Source of the DNA: Candidatus Gottesmanbacteria bacterium
GTDB lineage: Bacteria; Patescibacteriota; Microgenomatia; UBA10105; UBA927
Assembly (NCBI GenBank): GCA_963701185.1
Contig: OY969569.1
Location: 615,486-665,547, forward strand
DNA: 50,062 nucleotides
Direction: 5' to 3'
The translations under genes and the position numbers were made by a program. Position 1 is the first letter of the stretch, and each line of letters opens with the position of its first letter. Under the pieces are notes generated by a model. The model was not told the DNA's origin and searched no databases. It saw nothing but the letters and a program-made list of their open reading frames with translations. This document shows positions 13,701 through 45,496 of the stretch, one piece after another.

Positions 13701-15875
13701 GTCGAGAAGAGGGAGGAGAGAGTGAGGGGTTTGACACTAAGATTATCAATCTCCATTAAATCACCCGCATTATTACCAACATAAATTCTAAGATTGGGAC
13801 CAGTTGCAGTTGTTCGGCCGGAAACGGTGAAATTAGCCCACAAACTACTTGTTGCGGGATATAGAGCAGGAACCATGTTCCCCCCATATATACCTGATGA
13901 AGAATGTCCCGTCCATTTTGCTGCGTAAGTTAGCATGAACCAAGTATTAGCTGTTGTTGTCCATGCCCAATATGCACTTCCACTCACACCTGACCCCGGA
14001 TAGGCAAGACGTATATTGTATGAACCGGTGTTTGGTGCACTTGCATCAGATGATAGTGTTGGAGCGGGAGACCCTTGAGAAAACCATCCGGTTGTTGCAT
14101 TTGCTTCATTTCCATTTGGATCGGAAGCTGCATTTGCGGTAGTATAAAATTCACTCCCCAGCGTTGGGGTAATCACGCCACTATTTGTCAGTGTTGAAAC
14201 GCCGGAGACCAGGGTCGTCGGGGCGGAGGTCGTGAATTGGTCATTGAGAGTGTAGCCGTTCCAGCCGGTCAGGTCGATTTCAAAACCGGTATTAGTCATG
14301 GTACTGGCAGACATATCAAGGGTTACCCCGGTACCCGTCCACTTCATCGCCAATTTGGCCGCATCGGCCGTATCCGTGAGTTTTAATCCTTCGACTCCGC
14401 TTGCGACTTTTGCGGCCATGTCCCCCACGACGGTGAGGGTATTGGCGGGAGCCGTGGTCCCGATACCCACACGGGAGTTTGTGGTATCAAACGAGAGAAT
14501 ATTGGATATATTTTTGGTCGTGAGGACCGCCGTATCAACCAGGGTGAGATTGCCGGTTGTATCAACCGAGGCCACGATGGTCCCGTTATGGCCGTAGATG
14601 GTTAAGGGGGTATCCGTGACCGGGGCATTCACGGCACCGGAATACCCCAAGACGATATCCCCATCCTCGTCCATCAGCGCTTTCTGATATCCGGCAATGG
14701 CAAAACCCAACAATTGGCCGTTGGCAACCGACGTCGTCGGATTAATGAGGACCGTTGCCTGGGTATTCGTTGTATCGGTGGGCGCATAGGAGAAGGTGGT
14801 CTGGCCGGAAAAAGCCTGGGAGGAATTGGAATTGATATTGGCAACCCACACGTTATCAAACCGCAGGGCATTGGACCCCAAATCACTGCCCAAATCCGTC
14901 CCGGGAAGAAGGGATTTTCCGTTGGTAATCGTCGCGTTTCCGAAGGTGAGGGTATCCATCACCACCGTGTCCGTGGTTGTCGTTAACCCGACCGTGGTTC
15001 CGGTTTTTGTCCAACCGGAGAGGGTGTAATCCGGGGTATCGGCATTGATGGTGAGCGTTTTCCCTGTTGCATCGGTGGTGAGGGTAATGCCCCCGCTTTG
15101 GACAACGGTGAGGGTGTCGGTATTACTTCCGGCGGCAACACTGGTTTGGCCGGATACCGCGATGGTTTTAAAGATATTCTGGGAGGTTCCCCGATCGCTG
15201 TTGGTCACTTTCAACCCGTCGACGGTCATGCCGCCTCCTGCAGTCAGGGAGAGGGCGCCGGTTGAGCCGCCCAGAGACAGGACACCGGTGTTGGTTACCG
15301 TCGGAGTCTGGCCGGTGGAGACACTCATCCCCGTTCCTGCCGTCAGTCCATAGAGGATATTGCCTGCCGTGACCCGGGAAAATGATCGCGGAGCTCTGGG
15401 CAGCCTGAACATCTCCGGAGATGATCAACCCGGTATCAAACGTTGCCGTGTCTTTAAACTCTGCCGGCACATGGACGGTGAAGATGAAACTGCCGGACCC
15501 GCTGGCAACGGTGTCGCCGAGGACCGTTGCGGGGGTTTCGACCGGGGGGATAGTATGTTTTATTCGTATCATCCCTCCACCAAGGAAGAGTAAAACAAGA
15601 CCAAGGGAAACAAGAATCACCTTTGTCATTCCCGGCTTGACCGGGAATCCGCCTTCTGTTTTCTTTACAACCAATACCGATCCCCGCCTTCGCGGGGATG
15701 ACAAACCGTGCGAGGCAGAATTTCTGAGTTCTTCGATCTGCTCCGGGGTATACCGGCGCTGGTTGCCGAAAGTCCGCTGCGGGATGACCCGCCCCGCCTC
15801 TTCCCACCTCCGAAGGGTTTTTGTGGAGATGCCGAGGATCCGCGCCGCATCGTAGATCGATAAAAGTTTTGTCAT
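7794..15875 (-). CDS. Giant protein B: MerR-HTH, TM, fibre/adhesin-like repeats, S74 chaperone; frame broken at about 15387 and repeatedly in 9425-10480
   Basis: ORF pieces 15168-15875, 10472-15412, 10148-10426, 9821-10048, 9499-9762 and 7794-9425 are collinear with the paralogues; total span 8082 nt is a multiple of 3; ATGA overlaps at both ends. Confidence 0.72.
8240..8477 (-). other. Peptidase S74 intramolecular chaperone domain (copy B)
   Basis: WENTSSIALKENFTPVDPADLLTKISRLPLTRWNYKANPDTVTHIGPTAEKFYEIFG. End boundary approximate. Confidence 0.82.
15009..15837. repeat. Near-identical repeat of 22149-22977 (MerR-HTH to start of fibre)
   Basis: Offset 7140 throughout, with only scattered substitutions. 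Confidence 0.9.
15390..15875 (-). other. MerR-type HTH plus TM N-terminal segment of giant protein B
   Basis: LLSIYDAARILGISTKTLRRWEEAGRVIPQRTFGNQRRYTPEQIEEL, then TM VILVSLGLVLLFLGGGMI and VLG motif. Confidence 0.85.
15624..15703 (-). repeat. TGTC-tagged REP doublet (80 bp) in frame inside giant gene B
   Basis: Minus strand TGTC-ATCCCCGC(GAAG)GCGGGGAT-spacer-ATTCCCGG(TCAAG)CCGGGAAT-GACA; translated as LSSPRRRGSVLVVKKTEGGFPVKPGMT. Confidence 0.9.
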
Positions 15876-21800: not shown

Positions 21801-23030
21801 CCATCCTCGTCCATCAGCGCTTTCTGATATCCGGCAATGGCAAACGCAAGGAGCTGTCCGTTAGCAGTCGAGGTGGTGGGATTGATAATCACCGACGCCT
21901 GCGAGAGTGTCGTATCGGTGGGCGCATAGGAGAAGGTGGTCTGGCCGGAAAAAGCCTGGGAGGAATTGGAATTGATATTGGCAACCCAGAGATTATTAAA
22001 CCGTTTGCCCGCGGACCCCAAATCACTGCCCAAATCCGTATCAGGCAGAAGATTATGGCCATTGGTAATGGTTGCACCCCCGAACGTGATTCCGTCTACC
22101 ACGACCGCATCCGTCAGTGTCGTGAGACCCACGCTGGTACCGCCGTCTGTCCAACCGGAGAGGGTGTAATCCGGGGTATCGGCATTGATGGTGAGCGTTT
22201 TCCCTGTTGCGTCGGTGGTGAGGGTAATGCCCCCGCTTTGGACAACGGTGAGGGTGTCGGTATTACTTCCGGCGGCAACACTGGTTTGGCCGGACACGGC
22301 GATGGTTTTAAAGATATTCTGGGAGGTTCCCCGATCGCTGTTGGTCACTTTCAACCCGTCGACGGTCATGCCGCCTCCTGCAGTCAGGGAGAGGGCGCCG
22401 GTTGAGCCGCCCAGAGACAGGACACCGGTGTTGGTTACCGTCGGAGTCTGGCCGGTGGAGACACTCATCCCCGTTCCTGCCGTCAGTCCATAGAGGATAT
22501 TGCCTGCCGTGACCCGGGAAAATGATTGCGGAGCTCTGGGCAGCCTGAACATCTCCGGAGATGATCAACCCGGTATCAAACGTTGCCGTGTCTTTAAACT
22601 CTGCCGGCACATGGACGGTGAAGATGAAACTGCCGGACCCGCTGGCAACGGTGTCGCCGAGGACCGTTGCGGGGGTTTCGACCGGGGGGATAGTATGTTT
22701 TATTCGTATCATCCCTCCACCAAGGAAGAGTAAAACAAGACCAAGGGAAACAAGAATCACCTTTGTCATTCCCGGCTTGACCGGGAATCCGCCTTCTGTT
22801 TTCTTTACAACCAATACCGATCCCCGCCTTCGCGGGGATGACAAACCGTGCGAGGCAGAATTTCTGAGTTCTTCGATCTGCTCCGGGGTATACCGGCGCT
22901 GGTTGCCGAAGGTCCGCTGCGGGATGACCCGCCCCGCCTCTTCCCACCTCCGAAGGGTTTTTGTGGAGATGCCGAGGGTTTCGGCGGCATCCTGAATGGA
23001 GAGAAGCGTATCGACAGTATATGAATTCAT
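15872..23030 (-). CDS. Giant protein A: MerR-HTH, TM, fibre/adhesin-like repeats, S74 chaperone (about 2385 aa if the single +1 break near 22527 is removed)
   Basis: ORF 22308-23030 (HTH, TM) overlaps ORF 15872-22552 (2226 aa, intact); the junction aligns to the unbroken N-terminus of paralogue C. Confidence 0.8.
16320..16555 (-). other. Peptidase S74 intramolecular chaperone domain (copy A)
   Basis: WENTSSIALKENFTPVDPADLLTKIARLPLTRWNYK..HIGPTAEKF. End boundary approximate. Confidence 0.82.
22530..23030 (-). other. MerR-type HTH plus TM N-terminal segment of giant protein A
   Basis: LLSIQDAAETLGISTKTLRRWEEAGRVIPQRTFGNQRRY, then the same TM helix as copy B. Confidence 0.85.
22764..22843 (-). 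repeat. TGTC-tagged REP doublet (80 bp) in frame inside giant gene A
   Basis: Same sequence as 15624-15703. Confidence 0.9.
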
Positions 23031-23926: not shown

Positions 23927-24002
23927 TGTCATTCCCGCGTAGGCGGGAATCGGTATTGGTTTTATTGAAGAAGGCGGATTCCCGGTCAAGCCGGAAATGA
24001 CA
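23927..24002 (+). repeat. TGTC-tagged REP doublet (76 bp)
   Basis: TGTC-ATTCCCGC(GTAG)GCGGGAAT-CGGTATTGGTTTTATTGAAGAAGGCGG-ATTCCCGG(TCAAG)CCGGAAAT-GACA. Confidence 0.9.
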
Positions 24003-24010
24003 AGAAAATC

Positions 24011-24352
24011 ATGCTCCGTCATTATTATGTATACATAATGGCAAATAATAGACCGACGTTATATGTCGGTGTAACAAATAGTATTGAAAGAAGATCAGTT
24101 CAACATAAATATAAATTTATCGATGGGTTTACAAAAAAATATAATCTTTCAAAACTTGTATATTTTGAACATTATACTGATGTAAAAGAAGCGATCAAAC
24201 GGGAAAAACAATTGAAACATTGGAATCGGAGTTGGAAATTAAATTTGATACAAAAGATGAATCCTGCATTTGAGGATTTATATGATAAGCTGATATTAGG
24301 CGGGATAAAACAGAAGGCGGATCCCCGCCTTCGCGGGGATGACAAGCAATAA
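24011..24352 (+). CDS. GIY-YIG nuclease family protein (small stand-alone UPF0213-like type)
   Basis: YYVYIMAN..TLYVGVTNSIERR..QHK..FTKKYNLSKLVYFE..AIKREKQLKHWNRSWKLNLIQKMNP; the last codons DPRLRGDDK are the REP hairpin. Confidence 0.9.
   Translation: MLRHYYVYIMANNRPTLYVGVTNSIERRSVQHKYKFIDGFTKKYNLSKLVYFEHYTDVKEAIKREKQLKHWNRSWKLNLIQKMNPAFEDLYDKLILGGIKQKADPRLRGDDKQ
24307..24344 (+). repeat. Single REP hairpin with linker at right end of the GIY-YIG cassette
   Basis: AAAACAGAAGGCGG-ATCCCCGC(CTTC)GCGGGGAT-GACA. Confidence 0.88.
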
Positions 24353-24354
24353 TT

Positions 24355-25790
24355 ATGATTCACAGTTTTGATTTTTGCGTTAAAGAAACACATGATGTCG
24401 GCGAGGTCGTGCAGGTACATAGCTTCCTTGTGAGCGTATCGGGTTTGACCGGCGGGACAATCGGCGAAGGGGTCACCTTTGAAACCGGAGCCCACGGCCG
24501 CATCATGGCCCTTGCCCGGTCAACCACCGAAATCCTCGTCCTGTCACGCTCCATCATGAAACCCGGTACGCGGTGTTCCCGAACAGGCAAACTTATCTCC
24601 GTTTCCTGCGGAACCGGGCTCTTGGGAGAAGTCATCAACAGCATGGGGCACCTTCTGTCCACCGATAAAGCTGCCAGCCGTGAAACCGAGAACCGCCCGA
24701 TCGAAGCGTCCCCCGTCGGCATGACGGGCAGAATGCCGGTCGACACGTTTTTGGAAACCGGCATTGCCGCGATTGACTGCATTGTCCCCATCGGCCGCGG
24801 CCAGCGGGAACTGGTGATCGGCGACCGGACCACCGGCAAAACGCATGCGCTGCTGCAAATTGTAGCCACACAGGCGAAGATGGGTACGGTGTGTATCTGG
24901 GCGGCAATCGGAAAACGGAAGTCGGATATCAAAGCAGTCGAAACATTTTTAACACAAAACGGGGCCATGAAAAACACGCTGATTGTCGCCGCTGATTCGT
25001 ATGCGGCGCCGGGCGAAATATTTTTAGCGCCGTACACCGCCATGACACTCGCTGAGTATTTCCGGGATACGGGAAAAGACGTGCTGTTGGTTTTGGACGA
25101 CCTGACCACCCATGCAAAATATTACCGTGAAATTTCCCTCCTGTCCGGCCAATTTCCCGGGCGCGAATCCTACCCGGGGGATATTTTTCACGTTCATTCG
25201 AAACTGCTGGAACGCGCCGGATCGTTTGACATCCATAAAAAGCCGGTCACCATCACATGTCTGCCTGTTGCCGAAAGCGCCGGCGGCGACATGGTCGGGT
25301 ATATCCAAACCAACCTCATGTCCATGACCGACGGGCATCTGTACTTTGACAGCGACATGTATTTTCGCGGGATCCGTCCGGCCCTTAACGTCTTTTTATC
25401 CGTGACGCGCGTGGGCCGGCAAACCCAAACGCCGCTCCTTCGGGATATCGGCAAAACCGCCCTGTCGACGCTCAAAAAATATGAAAATGCGCAGAGCTTC
25501 CTCCGGTTCGGGCCGGATATCTCCCCCCAACTCCAGGAAGTTATCAAACTGGGAGATCACATTACCGCATTTTTAGATCAAACCGGATCATGGAGCATGG
25601 CGGATTCTTTAGCATCGGTGTTATTTGCCCTTATCACCGTGCACGCGTGGGACGGGACAAACGGCCGGGGTATCGCGGAGCGTTTTGACAAAGACGCAGC
25701 ATTTCAAACAACAATCCGGAGCCTGGCTGCCCGCGCCACATCGCTTGAAACACTCACGGCCGCAGTACAAAAGGCCAAACTAACAGTCAT

Positions 25791-32793: not shown

Positions 32794-33588
32794 TTAAAAC
32801 ACAAGCGTTTCGCGCAGGACGAGCCAGACAAATTCGGGGATGGCCAGCTGACGGCGGATGCGCCGGGGCTCAAGAAGTAACCGCCAGAACCATTCGAGAC
32901 CCAGGGAACGCATCCAAACCGGCGCCCGCGGCAGACGGCCGGAGATAATATCAAATGATCCGCCGACTGCCATAAAGATAACTCCATGCACATCCCGCGA
33001 AAGCCGCTGGATAAAATATTCCTGTTTCGGCGGCCCCAGGGCGACGAAGACTATTCGGGTACCTTCACGTATAATTTTACGGGCCAACCGTTCAAAATAT
33101 ATTTTCTCATTTGAATTATGAATGATGAATAATGAATTATGAATTTCAATTTCTGGTCCATCTTCTGCCCAGGAATCCTGTAGTAAATTATACTTTTGAC
33201 GTAAGCACTCGAGTGTCTCCACTGCCAAATTATCCCGACCTCCTATAAGTCCTATCGGGACGTGACATTTTTCGGCACGTTGAACGAGGTTCTCCATAAA
33301 CTCTACACCCGGAATTGGTTGTACCATACGGTTTTTTGTCAATATAGTACTTGCCCACACGACGCCGACCGTATCGGGGAGCGCTATATCGGCCCGATTT
33401 AAAATATCTGCAAAAGAGGGGTCATGCCTCGCGCGGACCAGCTGTTCGGTGTTCGGCGTGAAGATTTTGAGTGATTTTTGACTGGTTTTTCGTTCTTGAG
33501 ATAAATACTTCTGAATTTCCTCTAGGATTTCATTTTTAGAAGCATTTGTAATCGATATTCCCAGTATTTTTACCGCATTTAATCTCAT
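32794..33588 (-). CDS. WecB/TagA/CpsF family glycosyltransferase
   Basis: IFTPNTE, LPDTVGVVWAS, VFVALGPPKQE, VGGSFD..G..RAPVWMRSLGLEWFWRL..EPRR. Confidence 0.9.
   Translation of the reverse strand: MRLNAVKILGISITNASKNEILEEIQKYLSQERKTSQKSLKIFTPNTEQLVRARHDPSFADILNRADIALPDTVGVVWASTILTKNRMVQPIPGVEFMENLVQRAEKCHVPIGLIGGRDNLAVETLECLRQKYNLLQDSWAEDGPEIEIHNSLFIIHNSNEKIYFERLARKIIREGTRIVFVALGPPKQEYFIQRLSRDVHGVIFMAVGGSFDIISGRLPRAPVWMRSLGLEWFWRLLLEPRRIRRQLAIPEFVWLVLRETLVF
33112..33153. repeat. 7-bp TGAATTA-type array in frame inside the WecB/TagA gene
   Basis: TGAATTA TGAATGA TGAATAA TGAATTA TGAATTT; encodes EIHNSLFIIHNSN. Confidence 0.7.
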
Positions 33589-33606
33589 AGTTTACTAATA
33601 GTGATT

Positions 33607-33703
33607 AGCACTTAGTACTGAGAACTTAGAGCTTGGCGCAAATGAACACTTTTTTCCGTACCTAATTCTGAATAATGAATCATGAATTATGAATTATGAA
33701 TAA
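33607..33703. repeat. Two intergenic 7-bp arrays
   Basis: AGCACTT AGTACTG AGAACTT AGAGCTT (33607-33634) and TGAATAA TGAATCA TGAATTA TGAATTA TGAATAA (33669-33703). Confidence 0.75.
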
Positions 33704-33749
33704 TTAATATGAGCTTAAATCAAACTATATCAATTTTACCCTATTTTTG

Positions 33750-34805
33750 CTATTTTCTTGCGACTGTCCTTTTATATAGGTCTATATTTTCCAGCGCAAC
33801 TCCGGTCCCCCGCACAACGCAGAGCAAAGGGTCTTCCGACACATGACAGACAACGCCGGTCATGTGGGTCATGAGTTTGTCAAAATTCCGAAGGAGACTT
33901 GTGCCGCCCGCCATGACAATCCCCTTGTCAATAATATCTGCGGCCAATTCCGGCGGCGTTTCTTCAAGGACTCCTTTCACCGCAACGATGATTTGGTGCA
34001 GGGTCGGGGTAATGGCTTCTGAAATTTCACCGCTCGTAAGTTCCACCATGCGCGGCAACCCCGACACCGTATCCCTGCCGCGGACCTCCATAGATGTCAT
34101 CCCCGACTTGATCGGGGATCCGCCGATTCCCGCCTTCGCGGGAATGACAACCGGGAGAGCATCTCCTATGGTCATTTTTATCGTCTCTGCCATCCGTTCC
34201 CCGATAATCAGGTTATATTTTTTCTTGATGTAATTGAATATCGCCTCATCCAGTTTGTTGCCCGCCACCCGTGCGCTCTTGTGAACGACGACCCCGCCCA
34301 GGGATATCACCGCGGCCTCCGTTGACCCGCCGCCGACATCAACAATCATGTGTCCCGAGGCCTGGGCGATGGGAATTTTGGCGCCGATGGCTGCCGCAAG
34401 CGGCTCTTCGATAAGATACGCAACATTGGCGCCGGCAGAGAGCGTGGCATCCAGAACTGCCCGGCGCTCGACCTGGGTGACGCCGGACGGCACGCAGATC
34501 ATGACTTCGGGTTTAAAAATACGGTTGCGGCCGACTACTTTATCGATAAAGAAGGAAAGCATTGCCTCGGTAATCCGGTAATCGGCAATCACGCCGTCGC
34601 GCATCGGACGCGTCGCCATGATATTGCCGGGGGTCCGCCCCAGCATTTCCTTGGCCTCGTTGCCCACGGCCACCACGCGGCCGTCATCCAGGGTTATGGC
34701 CACCACCGTCGGCTCGTTGACGACAACACCCGAGCCCGCCAGCCACACGAGGGAATTTGCCGTCCCTAAATCTATGCCGATTCTTTTACGCCACTTGTTA
34801 AACAT
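33750..34805 (-). CDS. mreB: Rod shape-determining protein MreB/Mbl with in-frame REP insertion
   Basis: IGIDLGTAN, RPMRDGVIAD, EEPLAAAIGA, VDVGGGSTE, AGGTSLL. Confidence 0.96.
   Translation of the reverse strand: MFNKWRKRIGIDLGTANSLVWLAGSGVVVNEPTVVAITLDDGRVVAVGNEAKEMLGRTPGNIMATRPMRDGVIADYRITEAMLSFFIDKVVGRNRIFKPEVMICVPSGVTQVERRAVLDATLSAGANVAYLIEEPLAAAIGAKIPIAQASGHMIVDVGGGSTEAAVISLGGVVVHKSARVAGNKLDEAIFNYIKKKYNLIIGERMAETIKMTIGDALPVVIPAKAGIGGSPIKSGMTSMEVRGRDTVSGLPRMVELTSGEISEAITPTLHQIIVAVKGVLEETPPELAADIIDKGIVMAGGTSLLRNFDKLMTHMTGVVCHVSEDPLLCVVRGTGVALENIDLYKRTVARK
34095..34149 (-). repeat. TGTC-tagged REP doublet (55 bp, minimal spacer) inside mreB
   Basis: TGTC-ATTCCCGC(GAAG)GCGGGAAT-CGGCGG-ATCCCCGA(TCAAG)TCGGGGAT-GACA; reads VIPAKAGIGGSPIKSGMT. 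Confidence 0.9.
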
Positions 34806-34807
34806 AC

Positions 34808-34894
34808 TTTTAAATTTTCAATTTGAAATTTTTAATTTTTAATCAATTTTTAATTCTTAATTTCAAATTTTAAATTTTAAATTTCGAATTTTTT
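34808..34894. repeat. AT-rich imperfect 7-bp array upstream of mreB
   Basis: AATTTTC AATTTGA AATTTTT AATTTTT.. AATTTTA AATTTTA AATTTCG. Confidence 0.7.
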
Positions 34895-34942
34895 CGTGTA
34901 TTGGTATTCTACCATACATGGGTATATAATATATCCGTCCCT

Positions 34943-36115
34943 ATGCCCAAATTCAGACCCATTCTTATATCTATTGTTACGGTATGTTCTATTATCGGCA
35001 TCGCTATCGCAGTCATTGCCTACGGCCGCGGATACCGGTTGGACCTCAACAAAACCTCCATTAAACCTACCGGGCTTATCAGCGCCACCAGCGATCCGAT
35101 CGGGGCGCAGGTTCTGGTGGACGGCGTTCTCAAAACTGCGACAAATAATTCCTTCAATATCGATCCCGGCTTCTATACCATCCGTATCACAAAAGAAAGC
35201 TATATCCCCTGGGAGAAGAAAATACGCGTGCAGGGAGAGGTTGTGTCTGCCGTGAGCGCTTTCCTGTTTCCTACCAATCCGAGCCTGTCGCCTCTCACGA
35301 CGCTGGGCATCGTCAACCCGGTGCTTTCTCCTGACGGCACGAAGGTGGCCTACCTTATTCCGTCCCCCGCGTCCCGGGCCGGACTGTGGTATTACGGACT
35401 CTCCGAAGGCCCTCTCGGAAGAAACCGCGATCCGGTACACATAGATCAGAATACGACGCTGAATTTCACAAAGAGCACGATTACCTGGTCGCCGGATGCA
35501 ACACAGCTTTTAGTGGAAAATGATGCGAGTAGCCGCCTCTACACGCTCGAGAAACCCAATACATTCACGGATGTGACCGCCACACGCCTTCTGCTTCTTG
35601 CTGACTGGGCGGCGGCGCAGGCCGATACGGACAAGCAAAAACTTGCCGCGTTTAAGCCGGCAATTGTCAATCTGGCCACCTCGAGTGCTAAAATTATTTC
35701 TTTCTCACCGGATGAAACGAAAATTTTGTATGAAGCGACCGCGTCCGCGACTATCCCGCTCGTTTTGGTACCGCCTCTTATCGGTACAAACTCTACACCT
35801 GAAGACCGGAATATCAAACCGGGGAAATTCTATGTGTACGACAGCCGCGAAGATAAAAACTATTTTCTTCTCAATAAAAAAGAAATTTCCGGAGCCATTC
35901 AGTGGTTCCCGACAAGCCGCCATCTCCTCCTTACCCTGAAGAGTAAAATTGACGTCATCGAATATGACCGGACCAACTGGATCACGATCTATTCCGGACC
36001 GTTTGTCGACGACTTCGTGGCGCCGTGGAGTAACGGAAGCCGGATTATTATTTTGACGAATCTCAACGGAGACGCCCTGAGTCTTCCTAATTTATATACC
36101 GTCAACCTGCGGTAA
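34943..36115 (+). CDS. PEGA-domain membrane protein with TolB-like beta-propeller repeats
   Basis: N-terminal TM, GRGYRL, SDPIGAQVLVDG..PGFYTIRITKESYIPW, then SPDGTKVAY, WSPDA, FSPDE. Start placed at MPKF. Confidence 0.8.
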   Translation: MPKFRPILISIVTVCSIIGIAIAVIAYGRGYRLDLNKTSIKPTGLISATSDPIGAQVLVDGVLKTATNNSFNIDPGFYTIRITKESYIPWEKKIRVQGEVVSAVSAFLFPTNPSLSPLTTLGIVNPVLSPDGTKVAYLIPSPASRAGLWYYGLSEGPLGRNRDPVHIDQNTTLNFTKSTITWSPDATQLLVENDASSRLYTLEKPNTFTDVTATRLLLLADWAAAQADTDKQKLAAFKPAIVNLATSSAKIISFSPDETKILYEATASATIPLVLVPPLIGTNSTPEDRNIKPGKFYVYDSREDKNYFLLNKKEISGAIQWFPTSRHLLLTLKSKIDVIEYDRTNWITIYSGPFVDDFVAPWSNGSRIIILTNLNGDALSLPNLYTVNLR

Positions 36116-43639: not shown

Positions 43640-45496
43640 CTAGTCCCGTTTTAACACTTCAAAGAATGCCTCCTGGGGAATCTCGACCCGGCCGATGAGT
43701 TTCATTCTCGCCTTGCCTTTTTTCTGTTTTTTCAGGAGTTTATCTTTGCGCGTGCGGTCGCCGCCGTAGAGCTTCTGGATGACGTCTTTGCGGAACGCCT
43801 TGACATCCGAGCGTGCCACGACTTTGCCGCCGATTGCCGCCTGTATGGGCACCTCAAACTGATGGCGCGGAATGACGGCGGCCAGCCGCTCGGTAATTTC
43901 GATACTGCGCGTATGCGCCTGATCGCGGACCACGAGAAATGACAGCGCGTCGACTTTTTCGCGGTTGACGAGAATATCGATCTTCGCGACATCTACCGTC
44001 TGATAGTCGAAAAATTCGTAATCGAGGCTGGCGTAGCCCTCGGTAATGCTTTTCAATCTGTCAAAAAAATCAATAATCATCTCGGAAAGCGGAATACGAT
44101 AGGTAAACTCTACTTGGTCTGCCGTATATTTTTGGTCCACATACGTCCCCCGCTTTTCCTGCGCCAATTGCATAATGGGCCCAACGTACCGCTTCGGCGT
44201 GTAAATCGTGACTTCCATAATCGGCTCTTTCACCTCTTCAATAACCGTGGGGTCCGGAAATTCCGACGCCGATTGGATAAAAACCTCTACCCCCGATGTT
44301 TTTTTCAGATGATATTCGACCGAAGGCGCCGTCGCGATCATGTTGAGGTCAAATTCGCGGGACAACCGCTCCTGCACGATTTCCGCGTGGAGTAACCCCA
44401 AAAATCCGCAGTGGAAGCCGTTGCCCAGAGCCAGTGACGAAATCGGCCGGAAGGTGAACGCGCTGTCGGAGAGCCGCAATTTTTCCATCGTCTCCCGGGC
44501 GTAACTAAACTCTTCGCTGTTTATGGGAAACAAACTTAAAAACACCATGGGCTTGGGTTCTTTGTAGCCCGGAAGCGATGATACATTTTCTGTAGAAATT
44601 GTATCCCCGACCTTGGCAAATCGTACATCCTTAAGACCCGTTGCAATATACCCCACTTCTCCCGCAGACAATTTTTCCCCGTTGCCGATTGTGTGCATAT
44701 GAGGAAGAAAATACCCCATCTCGATAGGCGTTACGGAGGCGCCGGATGCCATAAACTGGAGCCGGGTGGACGAAGTAAACGGAATCTCCCCGTCGACAAC
44801 CCGCACAAACACGACGACGCCTTTATGTGCGTCATATTGCGAGGAAAAAATTAACGCGCGGGGTGGTTTTTCCGGATCTCCTTTTGGTGGAGAAATTTTT
44901 TCAACAATCGCCTCTAAAACTGCTGCGACGTTTTCTCCTGTTTTGGCGGAAATCTTTATTATGTCTTCTTTTCTAAATCCCAGACTCTCAAGCTCTTGTA
45001 TTGTTTCTTCTATCCGTGCTGTCGGCATGTCTATTTTATTGATAATCGGAATAATGGTGAGACCGTGAGAGCGCGCCTGATGGAGATTTGCCAGCGTCTG
45101 GGCCTGCACACCCTGGGTTGCGTCCACCACCAAGAGCGCGCCCTCACAGGCCGCAAGCGACCGGGATACCTCGTAGCCGAAATCGACATGACCGGGGGTA
45201 TCGATGAGATTTAATACAAAAGTGTCATTCTCGCGAAGGCGAGAATCGGTTTTGGTATTCGGAGAAAAGGCGGATCCCCGATCAGGTCGGGGATGACAAC
45301 GGTAAATCATCCGGACAGGTGCGAGTTTAATGGTAATCCCCCGTTCCCGTTCAATGGGATTGCTGTCGAGGATTTGCGGCCGGCAGTCGCGGTGCGCGAT
45401 TGTCCCCGTCACCTCGAGAAGCCGATCTGCCAGCGTCGATTTTCCATGGTCAATGTGCGCCACGATTGCAAAATTACGGATATGTGATTGATCCAT
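43640..45496 (-). CDS. lepA: Elongation factor 4 (LepA) with in-frame REP insertion
   Basis: IVAHIDHGKSTLADR, ERERGITIK, LIDTPGHVDF, NKID, GFLGLLH, C-terminal KQKKGKARMK. Confidence 0.97.
   Translation of the reverse strand: MDQSHIRNFAIVAHIDHGKSTLADRLLEVTGTIAHRDCRPQILDSNPIERERGITIKLAPVRMIYRCHPRPDRGSAFSPNTKTDSRLRENDTFVLNLIDTPGHVDFGYEVSRSLAACEGALLVVDATQGVQAQTLANLHQARSHGLTIIPIINKIDMPTARIEETIQELESLGFRKEDIIKISAKTGENVAAVLEAIVEKISPPKGDPEKPPRALIFSSQYDAHKGVVVFVRVVDGEIPFTSSTRLQFMASGASVTPIEMGYFLPHMHTIGNGEKLSAGEVGYIATGLKDVRFAKVGDTISTENVSSLPGYKEPKPMVFLSLFPINSEEFSYARETMEKLRLSDSAFTFRPISSLALGNGFHCGFLGLLHAEIVQERLSREFDLNMIATAPSVEYHLKKTSGVEVFIQSASEFPDPTVIEEVKEPIMEVTIYTPKRYVGPIMQLAQEKRGTYVDQKYTADQVEFTYRIPLSEMIIDFFDRLKSITEGYASLDYEFFDYQTVDVAKIDILVNREKVDALSFLVVRDQAHTRSIEITERLAAVIPRHQFEVPIQAAIGGKVVARSDVKAFRKDVIQKLYGGDRTRKDKLLKKQKKGKARMKLIGRVEIPQEAFFEVLKRD
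45223..45298 (+). repeat. TGTC-tagged REP doublet (76 bp) antisense inside lepA
   Basis: TGTC-ATTCTCGC(GAAG)GCGAGAAT-CGGTTTTGGTATTCGGAGAAAAGGCGG-ATCCCCGA(TCAGG)TCGGGGAT-GACA. Confidence 0.9.

Follow-up and report, generated by a model that had tools for sequence, protein, structure and literature searches.

The hairpin repeats termed NTS and SRM have been linked to single-domain GIY-YIG nucleases by Chenal et al. 2025 (PMC11893778), who reported that these repeats flank the ssnA genes encoding the nucleases, that Ssn enzymes cut the hairpin as single-stranded DNA and that the NTS-ssnA-NTS layout is insertion sequence-like. The Neisseria NTS of that study, CGTCATTCCCGCGMAVGCGGGAATCYRG, contains the dRS3 core ATTCCC-N8-GGGAAT. 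The published repeats flank or cluster around genes (in Neisseria, Wolbachia, Rickettsia and others), and the text of the paper mentions neither intragenic copies nor Patescibacteria. Besides this known repeat family, palindromic elements lying in frame within genes are also known, as the Rickettsia palindromic elements (RPEs; Ogata et al. 2000, reviewed in PMC10969869) and the QMITEs of Coxiella burnetii (PMC5896051). Here we analyzed a stretch of 50,062 nt from contig OY969569.1 (GenBank assembly GCA_963701185.1, positions 615,486 to 665,547 of the forward strand; hereafter the window, to which coordinates without a prefix refer) in which a 55-nt double hairpin lies in frame within the cytoskeletal gene mreB. 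We conclude that it is very probably an element of the NTS/dRS3/SRM class that was inserted in the subdomain IIB loop of MreB, where it is translated and close to neutral. The genome, a single contig of 995,214 bp with 47.7% G+C, is that of a Candidatus Gottesmanbacteria bacterium (Microgenomates, Patescibacteria, candidate phyla radiation (CPR)), which we take to be an ultra-small groundwater bacterium.

The locus resembles several described systems in part. With the NTS/SRM repeats it shares the sequence of one arm (arm A, TGTCATTCCCGCGAAGGCGGGAATC, to be compared with the NTS consensus above) including the dRS3 core, a second arm (arm B) that fits the SRM motif, a multicopy distribution and a single-domain GIY-YIG gene of about 100 aa with a hairpin to either side, as in the NTS-ssnA-NTS layout (PMC11893778). 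It differs from them in having as its unit an inverted doublet, 53-80 nt long, and in that more than one third of the loci lie inside genes. Like the RPEs, these are palindromic selfish repeats of a reduced genome that have entered many unrelated housekeeping genes in frame and lengthen the proteins at places compatible with the fold (PMC10969869), but RPEs measure about 100-150 bp and occur in Alphaproteobacteria, whereas the present repeats measure 53-80 bp, belong to a CPR bacterium and can be paired with a candidate nuclease. The repetitive extragenic palindromes (REPs) of REP/REPIN-RAYT systems likewise combine two inverted short palindromes into a larger hairpin and comprise an enzyme gene flanked by its own repeats; the gene enclosed here, however, encodes a GIY-YIG nuclease and not a Y1 protein, and the RAYT-like genes of this genome carry the palindromes CCTGCAAGGACTCTCCTTGCAGG and TGAAGACTGTCTTTGTACAAAGACAGTCTTCA. 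The QMITEs are small non-autonomous repeats that occasionally lie in frame in open reading frames (ORFs), but most such cases concern the ends of genes or hypothetical ORFs rather than the cores of essential enzymes, and they form another repeat family (PMC5896051).

The double hairpin inside mreB

The product of the mreB ORF matched the Pfam family MreB_Mbl (PF06723) with E=9e-130, and its nearest solved structure was Geobacillus MreB (PDB 7zpt, E=4.7e-114). Its loop between the IGDA and MEVRGRD motifs is 22 aa long and reads LPVVIPAKAGIGGSPIKSGMTS; 18 of these residues (220-237) are encoded by the double hairpin, whose plus strand is TGTCAT-CCCCGA-CTTGA-TCGGGG-ATCCGCCGAT-TCCCGC-CTTC-GCGGGA-ATGACA (Table 1). 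Hairpin 1 (ATCCCCGA-CTTGA-TCGGGGAT, 34099-34119) and hairpin 2 (ATTCCCGC-CTTC-GCGGGAAT, 34126-34145) both have a perfect 8-bp stem, and together they are closed by the inverted termini TGTCAT/ATGACA. Approximate matches to hairpin 2 numbered 7 in the window against 0.01 expected and matches to hairpin 1 numbered 2 against 0 expected, while the pattern GTCATYCCCGN{5,8}CGGGRAT gave 28 matches in the whole genome and none for the reversed control pattern. A chance origin of the mreB hairpins is therefore excluded. The coding-strand RNA of the element folds at -37.3 kcal/mol (z=-3.06), and an Rfam scan of positions 33000-35500 returned no family.

Table 1. Features of the window that bear on the mreB element and its repeat family.
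Feature	Position	Strand	Evidence and remarks
mreB	33750..34805	-	351 aa, intact ORF, all actin-fold motifs; PF06723, PDB 7zpt, dN/dS
SRM-type double-hairpin element, 55 nt, TGTCAT...ATGACA	34095..34149	-	encodes MreB V220-T237 (VIPAKAGIGGSPIKSGMT)
Arm B, TGTCATCCCCGACTTGATCGGGGATCCGC	34095..34123	+	fits published degenerate SRM motif (regular expression); hairpin proper 34099-34119
Arm A, TGTCATTCCCGCGAAGGCGGGAATCGG	34120..34149	-	contains dRS3 core ATTCCC-N8-GGGAAT (34126-34145)
Full-length doublet of the double-hairpin family	23927..24002		immediately upstream of the GIY-YIG gene
Single-domain GIY-YIG nuclease gene, candidate Ssn homologue	24011..24352	+	ORF, 113 aa; PF01541, E=2.7e-13
SRM-matching arm closing the GIY-YIG unit	24317..24344	-	hairpin match and SRM motif
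Doublet in lepA (ORF 43640-45496, -)	45223..45298	-	between RGITI and DTPGH motifs; +75 nt, specific to the species
Doublet in frame in MerR-HTH/TM gene (15168-15875)	15624..15703	-	ORF reading
Doublet in frame in duplicated MerR-HTH/TM gene (22308-23030)	22764..22843	-	ORF reading, Pfam

To assign the repeat we used the Neisseria NTS consensus and the degenerate SRM motif HGTCWYN(0-2)YYVSBRHN(0-5)WNVSBRGN(0-2)RNCYNB. Arm A departs from the NTS consensus only at its first base and in its 3' tail, and its dRS3 core is ATTCCCGCCTTCGCGGGAAT. Arm B matches the SRM motif, which arm A misses only at a Y position of the 3' tail. In the genome as a whole the motif had 15 matches, 13 of them genuine members of the family, against 0-8 in five first-order Markov simulations. 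Because arm A carries the dRS3 core and arm B fits the published motif, the element can be classed, by its sequence, as a doublet of the SRM/NTS type; its family is linked to a GIY-YIG gene that is Ssn-like.

Outside the loop the ratio of nonsynonymous to synonymous divergence (dN/dS) of mreB was 0.03-0.05 in comparisons with seven relatives, and the gene is thus under strong purifying selection. The genome also holds a second MreB-like gene (C1:542786-543787), about 49% identical, whose loop is of canonical size (9 aa). On a rival reading this paralogue does the work, while the copy with the insert is decaying or non-functional or the insert is an assembly artefact. We consider this very improbable given the low dN/dS, the intact motifs, an amino-acid identity to congeners of 86-92% and the presence of homologous inserts in independent assemblies from other studies; moreover, both paralogues are kept in all but two (G017 and G038) of the 40 relatives searched. 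A search of public contigs for the exact MreB protein gave no match.

The spacers that flank mreB (intergenic 33660-33710 and 34808-34894) are occupied by AT-rich repeats of a heptad type (ATTCATA-like). Such repeats also lie in frame in the downstream glycosyltransferase gene of the WecG/TagA family (32794-33588), where they read 'EIEIHNSLFIIHNS'. In alignments, this coding copy is present in the genome under study (G000) and in three congeners (G006, G002 and G001), and absent from G005, G003, G013 and G009. These repeats are a second class of translated repeat, unrelated to the double hairpin.

The repeat family and a linked GIY-YIG gene

Among the 28 matches of the hairpin pattern we count about 12 inverted doublets, 53-80 nt long, together with about 9 arms that stand alone. 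A match at C1:129733 was excluded as a chance match inside the VIPVYNEE motif of a glycosyltransferase. Every doublet is flanked by T...A, mostly by TT...AA, so that the termini of the family are the inverted repeats (T)TGTCAT/ATGACA(A). No doublet in the genome is shorter than the mreB copy; doublets of 51-59 nt are common in two relatives (G026 and G028). Besides mreB, copies lie in frame in LepA, Tgt, ArgS, LeuS, a RluD-like gene and two genes with a MerR helix-turn-helix (HTH) domain, so that at least 8 of about 21 loci are situated in an open frame inside genes. The identities of LepA, Tgt, ArgS and the MerR-HTH gene were confirmed with Pfam, while LeuS and the RluD-like gene were named from sequence motifs only. 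The copy in the latter, a pseudouridine synthase, is a single arm. The translated copies use varied frames and orientations (VIPAKAGI, SFPRRRES, CHPRPDRGS and DSRLRGND), and an arm, on inspection, can be read through in five of its six frames. Of note, one doublet (C1:712644-712711) stands directly upstream of an ORF for a 760-aa membrane protein whose first ATG is that of the ATGACA terminus; this doublet may supply the start codon.

About 10 kb from the mreB element, a doublet and an inverted single arm (23927-24344) enclose a GIY-YIG gene, the downstream hairpin encoding the last ~10 residues and the stop codon of the protein. The whole SRM-GIY-YIG-SRM unit stands directly upstream of a gene for an F1-like ATPase, at 24355. 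Out of six two-hairpin loci fetched from relatives, four are inverted pairs 170-420 nt apart, and all four of these enclose a GIY-YIG gene, which is full-length in G034, G013 and G029 and reduced to a C-terminal remnant in G024. A similar GIY-YIG remnant is found at C1:577674. The full units and the remnants suggest a deletion series leading from an ORF-bearing unit to a miniature. Across 41 genomes the number of hairpins was associated with the number of genes of this GIY-YIG subfamily (Fisher p=0.0036, Spearman 0.60). The protein is a candidate Ssn homologue, for which Pfam gives only a generic GIY-YIG domain.

The element had been labeled a REP in the earlier note, which we had to abandon: a RAYT-type REP was rejected since both genes with a Y1_Tnp domain (PF01797; C1:338025 and C1:383166-383822) carry different palindromes, and it is the NTS/dRS3/SRM hairpins that the arms match. 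One of these RAYT-like genes is bracketed by 32-nt perfect palindromes (TGAAGACTGTCTTTGTACAAAGACAGTCTTCA / CAAAGACTGTCTTTACGTAAAGACAGTCTTTG) and the other holds its own palindrome, the first of the two given above, in frame (the regions C1:383134-383855 and C1:337900-338500 cover both genes). These palindromes belong to repeat systems separate from the double-hairpin family. Of the two marks of a classical miniature inverted-repeat transposable element, the double hairpin has inverted terminal repeats, and a target-site duplication was not visible at the clean LepA junction.

The MreB loop among relatives

MreB orthologues from 40 relatives were aligned and 111 loci were then read, about 115 being readable through the loop in all. 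The relatives include six congeners (G001-G006) and members of other genera, such as G007 and G013. In the sampled genomes of the same order or class outside the family the loop is 7-8 aa long, with only three exceptions (10, 12 and 31 aa). It is of similar size in Geobacillus MreB (PDB 7zpt), with 8 aa, and in that of E. coli, with 9 aa. Within the family, nearly each genus has its own expanded loop of 10-60 aa. The frame is kept at every readable locus, without a single stop codon and with loops of 7-60 aa; an apparent frameshift in the mreB of G018 proved to be a run of N and not a disruption. The two congeners G001 and G003 have 10-aa loops and no hairpin of this family anywhere in their genomes. 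Since congeners free of the hairpin have the short loop, the insertion interpretation stands. That the segment was inserted rather than ancestral is also indicated by insert-free orthologues of each gene compared: for MreB in G001, G003 and the other families searched, for LepA in five congeners and for Tgt in G003, G006 and G001.

The earlier note, written from the sequence without database searches, had read a 22-aa loop in an otherwise intact mreB, had taken about 6-8 aa as typical and had seen in the insert a dispersed palindromic repeat reminiscent of those in Rickettsia. All of this agrees with the loop as read here, with the intact Pfam match and low dN/dS, with the loop lengths outside the family and with the in-frame copies in at least seven other genes. 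The alignment with close relatives that it proposed was run, and those without the repeat family do not have the 22-aa loop. Its size for the element, 55 nt, was right as an extent but not as the amount gained: the net gain is 36 nt (+12 aa) relative to the nearest congeners with an empty site, or +14 aa relative to a canonical loop.

The insert is not private to one genome. At this site G004 has a longer version of the element (L031, G004:C39), in which a second palindromic sequence of about 69 nt is nested, in frame, exactly in the tetraloop of hairpin A, giving a loop of 59 aa. In DNA alignments the mreB copy of the window corresponds to this long version from which 9 codons (27 nt) have been lost between GG repeats, so that the 55-nt copy looks like a long form of about 82 nt after an in-frame loss. 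Homologous but decayed copies were found in the mreB of G006, G002 and G005. A search of 5.8 billion proteins with words from the loop region led to the identification of 12 further MreB clusters, all Gottesmanbacteria-like, whose loops are of the V(I/T)PAKAG(I/V)...GSP(I)(K)SGMT type and are graded from intact to degenerate. These comparisons show that an SRM-type element occupies the same mreB frame in many species, at differing stages of decay, and that the MreB loop is an insertion hot spot across Gottesmanbacteria. The broader idea that all expanded MreB loops of the family derive from hairpins was unsupported: in 56 loops of at least 14 aa the best perfect stem averaged 5.6 against 5.3 in controls from the same gene (Wilcoxon p=0.19), and stems of at least 7 bp occurred in only 14 of these loops. 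In G007, the mreB gene has an unrelated loop insert of 60 aa, and a doublet of the double-hairpin family (G007:C5:72612-72678) lies about 10 nt upstream of its start.

The G228/D229 loop of E. coli MreB is where the green fluorescent protein is inserted. In an alignment with E. coli K-12 MreB (NC_000913.3), the extra residues fall at P227/G228|D229, and the insert can therefore be expected to be tolerated. Such sandwich fusions were made 'between residues G228-D229' of E. coli MreB (PMC11247099), at a site described as 'an internal non-conserved loop' (PMC12991368). In both cases, that is in the E. coli and Salmonella fusions and in the present gene, it is the same IIB loop that accepts foreign sequence, and filaments were seen with the fusions; the difference is that the latter are laboratory constructs with a whole fluorescent protein, whereas the present insert is a natural one of 18 aa derived from a mobile element (PMC11247099, PMC12991368). 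When the insert was mapped onto an AlphaFold2 model, which we used for subdomain IIB only, residues 180-300 (the IIB region) were predicted with confidence except for the insert itself, which is a coil with pLDDT<50. By alignment, model and low dN/dS, the insert lies in a surface loop of subdomain IIB compatible with the fold and function of MreB. Since the frame is kept at every readable locus, a constraint that would otherwise be absent, the segment is probably not removed before translation.

Together these data suggest how the element may have come to be carried. The repeat would most likely be an ORF-less miniature of the SRM-GIY-YIG-SRM unit, and it may be mobilized or homogenized by the GIY-YIG nuclease. 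To survive in an essential gene, a copy would need a length that is a multiple of three, no stop codon and a permissive loop. The MreB loop equivalent to G228/D229 would be permissive, as it tolerates a whole fluorescent protein in E. coli, and because of this permissive site the insert would be translated, as a flexible stretch of 18 aa rich in Gly, Pro, Ser and Lys, and be close to neutral. After insertion, copies would change by in-frame indels and substitutions, such as the 27-nt deletion in G000, the nested palindrome in G004 and the decay in G006, G002 and G005, and these changes would contribute to the range of loop lengths across the family.

Several points weigh against this interpretation. 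A transposition mechanism has been demonstrated nowhere for SRM hairpins, and a target-site duplication was looked for at the clean LepA junction and none was visible. The GIY-YIG protein had no match in NCBIfam, and its best match in the PDB was a weak one to the UPF0213 protein 1zg2 (E=0.0016). We infer the translation of the insert from the conservation of the frame, and none of the public sequencing runs searched for the mreB locus holds it. The AlphaFold2 model has a mean pLDDT of only 58 and is poor in the N-terminal half, being built from a shallow alignment of close relatives. A paralogue with a canonical loop exists, and tolerance could partly reflect redundancy. Finally, the copies of G000 and G004 are more alike than simple neutral decay since a single old insertion would have left them: their arms are identical at 54 of 55 positions, in genes that are 81% identical with a dS of about 1.3 (binomial p=1.3e-4). 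This likeness would be accounted for by a renewed insertion, by conversion with another copy as donor or by selection for the hairpin.

The insert might instead have been co-opted, so that its peptide or mRNA hairpin is functional, for example as a surface for an MreB partner or in translational pausing or regulation. An expanded loop does persist in most genera of the family, the predicted mRNA structure is strong and the arms of G000 and G004 are unusually well conserved. However, the loop is hypervariable in sequence and length (7-60 aa) and no peptide is conserved across the family, 10 aa suffice in close relatives, the E. coli site takes arbitrary cargo and the model predicts disorder, and we regard co-option as improbable.

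Origin of the copies and acceptor sites

If the element is a near-neutral SRM-type insert, its presence in many species could go back to one ancient insertion, in an ancestor of several Gottesmanbacteria genera, that has been actively maintained, or to recurrent insertions specific for site and orientation that left independent and recent copies. Maintenance, in some lineages, could occur by gene conversion with other copies as donors, perhaps triggered by cuts of the nuclease, or by selection for the DNA or RNA hairpin, with decay where the system was lost. All SRM-type MreB loops have the same orientation and frame (V-I/T-P-A-K-A-G-I/V ... G-S-P-I-K-S-G-M-T), a frame shared by about 20 species of at least two sampled genera (g1 and g8), whereas the copies in other genes use other frames; because of this shared frame and orientation common descent is favored. 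The gradation of the loops from intact to decayed and the near identity of the G000 and G004 arms in otherwise diverged genes point the same way. On the other hand, in a tree of mreB from which the loop was excluded, G000, G004, G006 and G003 were grouped (support 84/95), G002 and G005 were separate and G001 was basal. G003 thus nests with carriers of the insert and yet is empty, so that a single gain requires a loss in G003, as far as the support of a single gene goes. In addition, G004 has intact arms and yet only two hairpins and no close GIY-YIG homologue.

The insertions in LepA and Tgt bear on the second possibility. The lepA copy sits just before LNLIDTPGH; five congeners have a clean, empty 13-aa site where G000 has 75 additional nt, and the LepA of G013, of another genus, has a related element there whose frame and orientation are identical. 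LepA thus shows that elements do enter one site independently of each other, and in one frame. In Tgt (tgt, C1:457666-458883) the copy sits just after DSGGFQVFSLG. G000 and G002 share this insert although G003 and G006, which are closer to G000 in the mreB tree, are empty, as is G001, while G004 and G013 have unrelated inserts of 50 and 85 aa. Loop lengths at this position in seven species (including L136-L141) were 5, 10, 10, 37, 38, 50 and 85 aa, and the Tgt loop after DSGGFQVFSL is another insertion hot spot. The near-perfect arms of the mreB copies in G000 and G004 would also fit recent insertion. Against recurrence, the decay seen in G006, G002, G005 and the proteins P0002-P0012 implies a long residence, and no target motif or target-site duplication was found. 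Furthermore, the Tgt doublets of G000 and G002, which are not sisters in the mreB tree, are nearly identical including the flanking residues. This fits common descent or allele transfer, and hints at either such a transfer or lineage sorting. Weighing these observations, we rank an ancient insertion with maintenance, to which we give somewhat less than an even chance, slightly above recurrent targeted insertion, which is possible rather than probable.

Literature searches for in-frame palindromes in CPR bacteria, for the encoded peptides (IPAKAGI and FPRRRES among others) and for a link between RPEs and GIY-YIG proteins returned nothing relevant. We could not find a description of RPE-like insertion by the SRM family, of its occurrence in essential genes of CPR bacteria or of the MreB loop as a natural hot spot. 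The mreB insert is a genuine case of the RPE kind in a lineage new for it. It connects such insertions with the NTS/SRM family, whose partner enzyme Ssn was characterized biochemically only in 2025, and thereby offers a candidate agent of their spread or upkeep that can be put to the test. For annotation, it means that odd low-complexity loops in core proteins of CPR bacteria need not be errors. Evolution has also repeatedly used the very MreB loop that was chosen empirically for sandwich fusions, with a naturally tolerated range of 7-60 aa. A wider conjecture, which we hold to be rather unlikely as it stands, is that Ssn-type GIY-YIG nucleases and SRM hairpins are a general driving force behind protein-coding palindromes in reduced genomes, those of CPR bacteria here and possibly including the Rickettsia RPEs. 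If this were true, hairpin-nuclease-hairpin units would be autonomous elements and the doublets their miniatures, nuclease-triggered repair, with other copies as templates, would keep translated hairpins of essential genes intact over long times, and a few permissive loops such as the G228/D229 loop of MreB, the beta-turn of LepA and the Tgt loop after DSGGFQ would be recurrent acceptor sites.

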